Below are positions 31,491 through 32,165 of a stretch of 45,440 nt of DNA, one piece after another. Within the stretch, counting starts at the first letter, position 1; each line of letters opens with the position of its first letter. This stretch comes from Octopus sinensis. Its lineage: Eukaryota. The notes below the pieces were generated by a model. That model saw only the letters and a list, made by a program, of their open reading frames with translations. It was not told the origin of the DNA and ran no database searches. The stretch covers positions 1 through 45,440 of the forward strand of contig NW_021834884.1 in assembly GCF_006345805.1 (NCBI RefSeq), written 5' to 3'. The translations under genes were made by a program, and so were the position numbers.

Positions 31491-31495
<5 letters not shown>

Positions 31496-32165
31496 ATCAA
31501 AAAAGGGGGTCGAATTAATTAATTATTAATAAATTCGACCAAGCAGTATTCGGTATGTAAAGACCATTTACGGTATATTTGAAGTATTAATTTATAAAAA
31601 TATGGTAAAGTAAAAGAATTCACTTTACCACACACCGAACTTTTCAGAAATAACAGCCAAAAATTTGGCTATTTCTTCAACTGCAAATAAAAGTCTCCAG
31701 ACAATGCATACTCAGAAAAATAACTAACATAGGTATAAGGGAAAAACAATGAAAGATCACATCCATATACGATACCCGAGGACAGTCTGTTTCTAGATTT
31801 GTGGGTAAAACGCCACTTTTCCTTCATCAGCTCAGAGATTTCTTCTGATTTAGATTCGAAAATACTAAGAATCAAACATACCCGTCCGATATCTGTAACA
31901 TCGGACAAACCATGCCAGACACCCAGTACTAGCGAATCCAAAAATACGAATGAGATCTATTATTCTCCCTGTCCGCCCACGTGAGTCATAGAGCATTCCA
32001 TTTCTACAGAGGTAAAAACTGCAGTTCAAATTCTTGGAGAGAAAGCATTATATTGTTATCAAAAAAGGGGGTCGAATTAATTAATTATTAATAAATTCGA
32101 CCAAGCAGTATTCGGTATGTAAAGACCATTTACGGTATATTTACTTTACCATATTTTTATAAATT
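31491..32165 (-). mobile_element. Retrozyme/Penelope-like non-coding element: 562-bp monomer, 90-bp direct repeat and short inverted tail, in (TA)n
   Basis: Identical repeats at 31491-31580 and 32053-32142. 32141-32165 is the reverse complement of ~31589-31613. HHR inside. TA tracts on both flanks. Confidence 0.8.
31778..31833 (-). ncRNA. Type I hammerhead ribozyme
   Basis: GAG CUGAUGA [AGGA AAA GUGG..CCAC AAA UCUA] GAAA CAG A CUG UC CUC. Stem I can extend with G-U pairs. GUC triplet. Confidence 0.75.

Follow-up and report, generated by a model that had tools for sequence, protein, structure and literature searches.

The question that we begin with is what kind of element leaves an identical direct repeat, a minus-strand hammerhead motif and a short inverted tail at 31491-32165, and by which route it was inserted there. 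The locus lies in a 45,440-nucleotide stretch of Octopus sinensis DNA (contig NW_021834884.1 of assembly GCF_006345805.1, positions 1 to 45,440), which we call the window and which is AT-rich and microsatellite-rich. The reading that we favor, with a probability of roughly 0.75, is a 1.16-unit insertion of a non-autonomous, non-coding hammerhead retroelement (a non-LTR retrozyme) that was moved by Penelope-like machinery.

The direct repeat is exact, with 94 of 94 nucleotides identical between 31487-31580 and 32049-32142. The spacing between the two copies is 562 nt, as the original prediction had claimed for the unit; the 90 bp that it gave for the repeat leaves out the letters common to the TA tract. 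The insertion has a length of 1.16 units, and both of its ends are inside (TA)n. The inverted tail is real as well and is 27 nt long, where 25 bp had been proposed: 32140-32166 is the exact reverse complement of 31588-31614 (blastn against the window, E 3e-8). Of the 27 nt, 22 are unambiguous: the TTT at the inner end (3 nt) also closes repeat 2, and the TA at the outer end (2 nt) also belongs to the right microsatellite. The source of the tail had been placed directly downstream of repeat 1, but 7 nt (31581-31587) are omitted, and the inverted piece has its start at 31588, a base within the unit that lies 97 nt from the main start. The tail begins precisely at the first base of the 3' arm of a hairpin at 31600-31633; when this hairpin is folded as DNA, its loop widens to 31612-31621. 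The parts of the insertion are the following.

31448..31491: left (TA)n target tract, ending in TATAT (31487-31491), which are also the element's own letters at the putative priming site
31487..31580, minus strand: direct repeat copy 1, the sense 3' end and putative start of reverse transcription; a copy in sequencing run X8 starts at the same base
31491..32052, minus strand (the RNA sense): one full turn of the 562-nt non-coding monomer, from the repeat spacing, the circular fold and a cycle in sequencing run X3
31508..31540: hairpin inside the repeat, adjoining the putative priming site (the repeat folds at z -2.8)
31581..31587: 7 nt that turn 1 contains and the inversion junction lacks
31588..31614, plus strand: source of the inverted tail (exact match)
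31600..31633, minus strand: RNA hairpin of 15 bp with a 4-nt loop at 31615-31618 (z -7.4)
31700..32036, minus strand: extended self-paired rod from which the hammerhead branches off, by fold prediction only
32049..32142, minus strand: direct repeat copy 2, an exact repeat forming a partial second turn
32140..32166, plus strand: inverted tail of 27 nt, with an inner microhomology of 3 nt and a 2-nt match to the TA tract
32165..32182: right (TA)n tract, within which a target-site duplication is unreadable

The next question is whether the minus-strand motif, which had been placed at 31778-31833, has the parts of a ribozyme. All of the core letters and stems of a type I hammerhead are present, over 31775-31836. 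They are given here on the minus strand, with hammerhead residue numbering where residues are named in the text.

31775..31836, minus strand: type I hammerhead, with stem I between 31836-31831 and 31780-31775
31830..31824, minus strand: CUGAUGA
31823, minus strand: extra A
31822..31795, minus strand: stem II
31794, minus strand: extra A
31793..31790, minus strand: GAAA
31783..31781, minus strand: GUC
3' of C31781, minus strand: predicted hammerhead cut

Stem I has 6 bp, stem II is branched, and the 4-bp stem III is near-palindromic and closed by a loop of a single nucleotide. Among 20000 mononucleotide shuffles of the unit, 26 pass a loose hammerhead descriptor and 2 pass one with these lengths of stems I and III; neither descriptor demanded stem II. 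The core is atypical in that two A residues stand opposite each other where stem II meets the core, with an extra A between C11.1 and G12 (before GAAA), and a scan demanding stem II pairs beside the core missed the hammerhead for this reason. Rfam has no hit at the gathering score in the window; over 31000-32700 it returns 30 matches at E up to 10 with no ribozyme among them, and the five with listed alignments lie in the microsatellites to the left of the element. A search with the hammerhead pattern gave no viral hits and, in public contigs, one metagenome hit (L001), which was rejected as being without stem I and without further similarity. No plus-strand ribozyme was found in the unit.

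Would such a hammerhead cleave? The isolated motif folds no better than its shuffles (z +0.9), and in the predicted circle stem I has a probability below 0.01, with the hammerhead fold lying 6 kcal/mol higher than the minimum. Stem III is not formed when a single molecule is folded; between two copies it is predicted to pair at -6.9 kcal/mol. Since stem III would form only between two molecules, self-cleavage of the predicted hammerhead is plausible for a dimer, as far as the modeled structures tell. Hammerheads of Penelope-like elements (PLEs) that cleave as dimers were reportedly described by Lunse et al. in 2017. The formation of stem III between two molecules is described for metazoan type I hammerheads, as is the conservation of an unpaired base after A9 in those of PLEs (PMC4209133). 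At the place before GAAA, the passages on natural core variants in two other sources mention a U-U mismatch and not an A-A one (PMC3088659, PMC7229834), and a 2026 preprint describes cleavage for only one of nine predicted retrozyme dimers (10.64898/2026.07.22.740005). We hold it to be possible that a hammerhead whose stem II is flanked on each side by an unpaired A works naturally in dimeric form, with our expectation leaning against it.

We now consider the monomer as a whole. Its circular fold reaches -168.3 kcal/mol on the minus strand, with a z score of -8.6 there versus -2.9 on the plus strand (30 shuffles each), and the linear fold of the hammerhead strand has a z score of -8.05. The predicted fold of this strand is a long rod with side hairpins in which the two unit ends pair together. 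In absolute fold energy the unit does not rank with the lowest 12 among the 160 tiles of this microsatellite-rich window, so we rely on the shuffles alone for comparison. Its GC content is 0.35, and its longest stop-free frame is 95 aa. Six frames, of eight listed (two mostly in the TA tract were omitted), match no Pfam family at its cut-off, and among these six there is no remnant of a reverse transcriptase (RT) or a GIY-YIG domain. There is no tRNA in the window, and an origin from tRNA or Pol III transcripts was rejected: comparison with the Pol III box consensus finds only one-mismatch look-alikes of the B box, and the sense strand has 11 stretches of at least four T, which disfavor Pol III.

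The question that follows is whether the unit exists elsewhere. The 562-nt family is present in 20 of the 24 public sequencing runs listed, 17 of them with half or more of its words; these 20 runs belong to 8 studies and carry 3 organism labels. RNA is not the recorded type of any of the 24 runs, which carries no information about expression, and 10 of the 20 are guessed to be RNA. The run with the best match may itself be the source of the window. Contigs of four of the 20 runs were placed on 31581-32700, namely X1 (type not on record), X12 (guessed to be DNA), and X3 and X8 (only guessed to be RNA). For the two large runs, X1 and X12, the median summed depth in the element's 15 bins is about 97,000 and 101,000, and the longest listed flank contigs have a depth of 24-60; the ratio corresponds to some 1,700-4,100 copies, a rough figure since summed contig depth is not copy number. 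Other copies do exist, then, and the depth suggests thousands, so that the objection that the unit might have no other copies fails. Two local features of the depth may be added. Over the predicted cleavage site, at 31771-31808, the depth in both large runs drops 3- to 6-fold under the median, which could reflect either the way in which contigs map over the private letter of this copy or true heterogeneity where the unit is ligated. At 31581-31618 the depth in X1 peaks at 300,000 versus 107,000 in the next bin; as the peak is absent in X12, it was not taken as evidence of a recurrent second priming site at 31588.

Contigs cross the head-to-tail junction at 32046 with 28% (X1) and 41% (X12) of the median depth, and the head-to-tail form is therefore a family trait. 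In X3 one contig of 597 nt (depth 76.6) covers 31643-32142 and then 31581-31672, and its 30-nt end overlap makes a closed cycle of 567 nt, a form in which circle, multimer and tandem DNA are inseparable in contigs. This cycle differs from the window copy by nine substitutions and one 5-nt insertion and has an intact hammerhead; the one hammerhead position that differs is 31795, where the family letter gives G10.1-C11.1 and the window copy has G-U. The 46 contigs placed from X3 have one dominant haplotype, whereas the large runs are split into 3495 and 3761 contigs. In X8 the unit is found in several pieces, and record 24 of this run shows a second genomic copy whose boundary with a TA-rich microsatellite falls at 32049, matching the start of the window copy. 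The start is the same in two of the two ends seen, both at TA-rich tracts, which is a small sample; of 711 loose contig ends, 24 are listed. An empty site was not seen among the placed contigs, for which the TA stretch is masked.

We turn to the age of the insertion, which had been called young. The two repeats would be copied from one molecule, and their identity can therefore be read as a clock. The 0 of 94 differences between them and a distance of about 1% from the family agree with a young insertion, but the former bounds the pairwise divergence only below 3.1%, and private letters are present. At least four letters (31653, 31726, 31795 and 31857) differ from nearly all of the contig depth in all four runs, which is about 0.9% of 468 single-copy bases and is a lower bound from 40 of 151 rows. 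At 31616 and 31998 the window copy agrees with the runs guessed to be RNA against the majority in X1 and X12. Judged from the letters, it is plausible that the insertion is fairly young. A-to-I editing of the template was considered for the private changes and was rejected, only one of the four being A to G on the RNA strand; with two changes that improve the pairing and two that worsen it, neither editing nor decay is supported. At 31653 and 31857, two sites in predicted stems, the family form is mismatched (A-C) and the window copy is paired in the standard way.

Combining the anatomy, the fold and the family, we propose the following route for the preferred reading. A tandem source locus would be transcribed on the hammerhead strand. 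Two hammerheads would pair through their near-palindromic stem III and cut after GUC, and ligation of the released unit of about 565 nt would give a circle with extensive pairing, where a single ribozyme would stay unfolded. A Penelope-like RT and endonuclease would then nick the (TA)n tract, and the free end would pair with the fixed AUAUA site and prime reverse transcription on the circular or multimeric RNA. The exact direct repeat that is present in the window may have arisen from copying 562 nt and about 90 nt more. The inverted tail and the deletion, which are also present, would come from twin priming, in which a TA match would let the other target strand prime a short way ahead of the first enzyme and copy 27 nt, and the cDNA ends would join by a 3-nt match with a loss of 7 nt. 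Copying a circle beyond one unit is the published model for retrozymes and for PLE tandems (PMC7229834, PMC4209133), microsatellite targeting and tandem or inverted structures are described as PLE traits (10.1101/2021.04.23.441226), and twin priming is defined by two inverted fragments with an internal deletion (PMC2837659). The partner RT and endonuclease is by inference Penelope-like. The window copy is probably a dead-end offspring without a second hammerhead.

The origin of the tail can be explained in more than one way within the same element model. The original prediction, a template-switch or self-priming scar, names one of two mechanisms, and twin priming is at least its equal on the 7-nt deletion and the adjacency. 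In a self-priming fold-back, the TTT at the end of the turn-2 cDNA would pair with an AAA in the open hairpin loop of the first-turn cDNA, and the cDNA would copy back along the hairpin arm and stall 7 nt before its own fork. This agrees with the tail beginning at the first base of the hairpin 3' arm, a start at the hairpin tip that twin priming does not predict, and with 31612-31614 being the first loop bases in the DNA fold (unpaired probability 0.46-0.75). Twin priming also leaves a longer, 6-nt match at 31598-31603 unused, and its second priming site on the circle would already lie under the first-turn cDNA, which may hinder it. The fold-back, on the other hand, requires a second switch, to the TA tract, with a match of only 2 nt; AAA occurs at least 40 times in the monomer, so that a 3-nt match says little, and there is one copy only. 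Within the preferred element model we lean slightly toward twin priming and regard the fold-back as a real contender that we do not favor, while later repair has a small chance. Taken as a complete account of the locus, the same element with a fold-back tail is rather unlikely.

Other explanations concern the element itself. The unit could be the truncated 3' end (solo pLTR) of an autonomous PLE, with repeat 2 coming from a one-off template jump. The hammerheads of PLEs are described as having a palindromic stem III and as leaving a base unpaired behind A9 (PMC4209133), (TA)n targets and tandem and inverted pieces are likewise described for PLEs (10.1101/2021.04.23.441226, PMC4209133), and the 24 of 711 loose ends that are listed leave room for extensions into a longer element. 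A one-off jump does not sit well with a junction crossed at 28-41% of the family depth and closing as a cycle in X3, and the six frames tested hold no RT or GIY-YIG remnant; moreover, the two unit ends pair with each other in the predicted fold. We consider this origin quite improbable. About as improbable, in our view, is a satellite-like DNA unit that spreads at the DNA level (circular DNA or recombination) and carries a decayed, inactive PLE-derived hammerhead. The atypical core without an Rfam match would suit it, the RNA status of the runs is a guess, and tandem DNA would likewise give a closed cycle; against it stand the strand-biased RNA-type fold, the same start in two of two ends, both at TA-rich tracts, and the single dominant haplotype of X3 versus the heavily split contigs of the large runs. 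An assembly artefact at the microsatellite edges, which would account for the repeat or the tail, is very unlikely. Both ends do lie in (TA)n and no placed contig spans the tail junction (32151-32192 is masked as repeat), but contigs from public runs independently show both the left end and the head-to-tail junction, and a 7-nt deletion with microhomology at both ends would be unexpected from a collapsed repeat.

A bolder proposal is that the 567-nt hammerhead circle is partly self-maintaining, being copied from RNA to RNA in octopus cells, and that the genomic copies are snapshots taken by a Penelope-like enzyme from a fixed internal site. The hint for it is that the contigs of X1 and X12 give no depth at all to four of the substitutions, and to the 5-nt insertion, that mark the X3 cycle. 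Two of these changes, at 31734 and 32060, recur in X8, a different study. Against such copying, the 32060 variant of X8 is on a contig joined to the microsatellite and is thus from a genomic copy; individuals differ, contigs drop rare variants, and no ribozyme was found on the plus strand. A rare source locus is the simpler reading of these variants, and we give the copying of RNA to RNA very little credence.

The neighborhood of the insertion contains other repeats. The plus-strand element at 17984-18497 is a retrozyme-like insertion in (TA)n with a 391-nt unit, 1.3 turns and a 123-nt repeat at 96.7% identity; its hammerhead core is at 18260, its predicted cut is near 18317, and it has no strong fold (z -0.8). 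It is probably what was earlier counted as the first retrozyme-like family, and the claim that the 562-nt unit is unrelated to the other hammerhead families is borne out: with blastn the 391-nt repeat gives no hit, and the element at 41905-42230 gives none but short AT-rich ones, the best at E 0.02. This latter element (plus strand) is a solo pLTR-like piece in (TA)n with a minimal hammerhead at 42094-42129 and a perfect 57-nt inverted arm plus an extension of about 70 nt, which is the classic Penelope inverted structure with a tail. A diverged relative (about 80%) at 33500-34007 has its own inverted arm and an AT-rich center, with no hammerhead core detected. The right flank of the insertion, 32190-32560, is an older repeat with many opposite-strand contig joints, suggesting a palindromic element. 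Farther away are a mariner-type transposase remnant at 34394-35206 (frame 34745-35203 matches Pfam Transposase_1, E 2e-19), minus-strand frames at 35289-36371 that by eye could be the terminal part of a non-LTR retrotransposon of the restriction-like endonuclease type (the one frame tested has no Pfam hit), an inverted repeat of about 110 nt at 91% identity (30401-30510 and 30693-30805), possibly a small non-autonomous DNA transposon, and a repeat-derived frame at 21205-21579 whose one hit is a named Octopus bimaculoides protein, 83% identical.

What would the 562-nt family contribute? The single locus at 31491-32165 is by itself an ordinary, probably inert insertion, and the family is an addition to a known class of small parasitic retroelements, the retrozymes. 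The movement of retrozymes as RNA circles by Penelope-like enzymes is described as a model and not as a demonstration (10.64898/2026.07.22.740005, PMC7229834, PMC4209133). This one family unites a candidate circle, a fixed internal start, copying of more than a unit and an inversion scar, and with thousands of copies (a rough number) in sequenced octopods the start sites and inversion ends become countable and the circle model testable. Counting the inversion ends could separate twin priming from fold-back for a PLE-type enzyme. The family would also extend the retrozymes to cephalopods and add a variant of the hammerhead core. Our literature searches brought up papers on PLEs or on unrelated subjects and no report of a cephalopod retrozyme; the supplements of PMC7229834, PMC4209133 and the preprint, or Repbase, may list the family, and two of the three supplementary files of PMC4209133 are without a cephalopod term.

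Finally, we compare the element with known systems. It resembles the metazoan non-LTR retrozymes, as they are described (PMC7229834; 10.64898/2026.07.22.740005), in its non-coding head-to-tail unit with one type I hammerhead each, a GC content below 50%, a highly self-paired predicted circle and copies that number, roughly, in the thousands. The weak stem III, predicted here to need dimers, is as in the axolotl retrozymes. At 562 nt the unit is longer than the circles of 170-400 nt (PMC7229834) and within the preprint's range of 51-972 bp (10.64898/2026.07.22.740005). The window copy, with one hammerhead, falls outside what the preprint calls an active locus, which has two in tandem (10.64898/2026.07.22.740005). 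The hammerhead fold is not the minimum of the predicted circle, unlike that of most metazoan retrozymes (PMC7229834), and the extra A before GAAA is unlike the cores described for metazoan non-LTR retrozymes.

With the PLEs that have a C-terminal endonuclease (PMC4209133; 10.1101/2021.04.23.441226), the element has in common the partial tandem, the inverted 5' piece and the microsatellite target. The partial tandem with a fixed 3' end at a microsatellite matches a described PLE trait in two of two ends, a small sample, and the hammerhead is like those of pLTRs in the unpaired base between 9 and 10.1, the palindromic stem III and, in the family form, G10.1-C11.1. Unlike the autonomous PLEs as described, the 562-nt unit is without a reading frame for RT plus GIY-YIG, and it is not an autonomous PLE. 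The pattern of a retrozyme-like, Penelope-like insertion that was first proposed holds, with a difference in the tail: the inverted piece of a classic pLTR starts at the 3' end of the element or beyond it, overlapping the direct copy from there, and has a 30-40 bp tail, while here the inverted piece starts well inside the unit, at a base that could be a second fixed priming site. The junction is also like the twin-priming inversions of L1 (PMC2837659), with two inverted fragments, an internal deletion and short junction microhomology. It is unlike L1 inversions in having no poly(A) tail and no L1 endonuclease site, with a target-site duplication that cannot be read in (TA)n; a PLE RT is the probable enzyme here, possibly on a circular template. 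On the features that could be tested, the 562-nt element probably belongs to the non-LTR retrozymes, with a candidate circle and a predicted cleavage.
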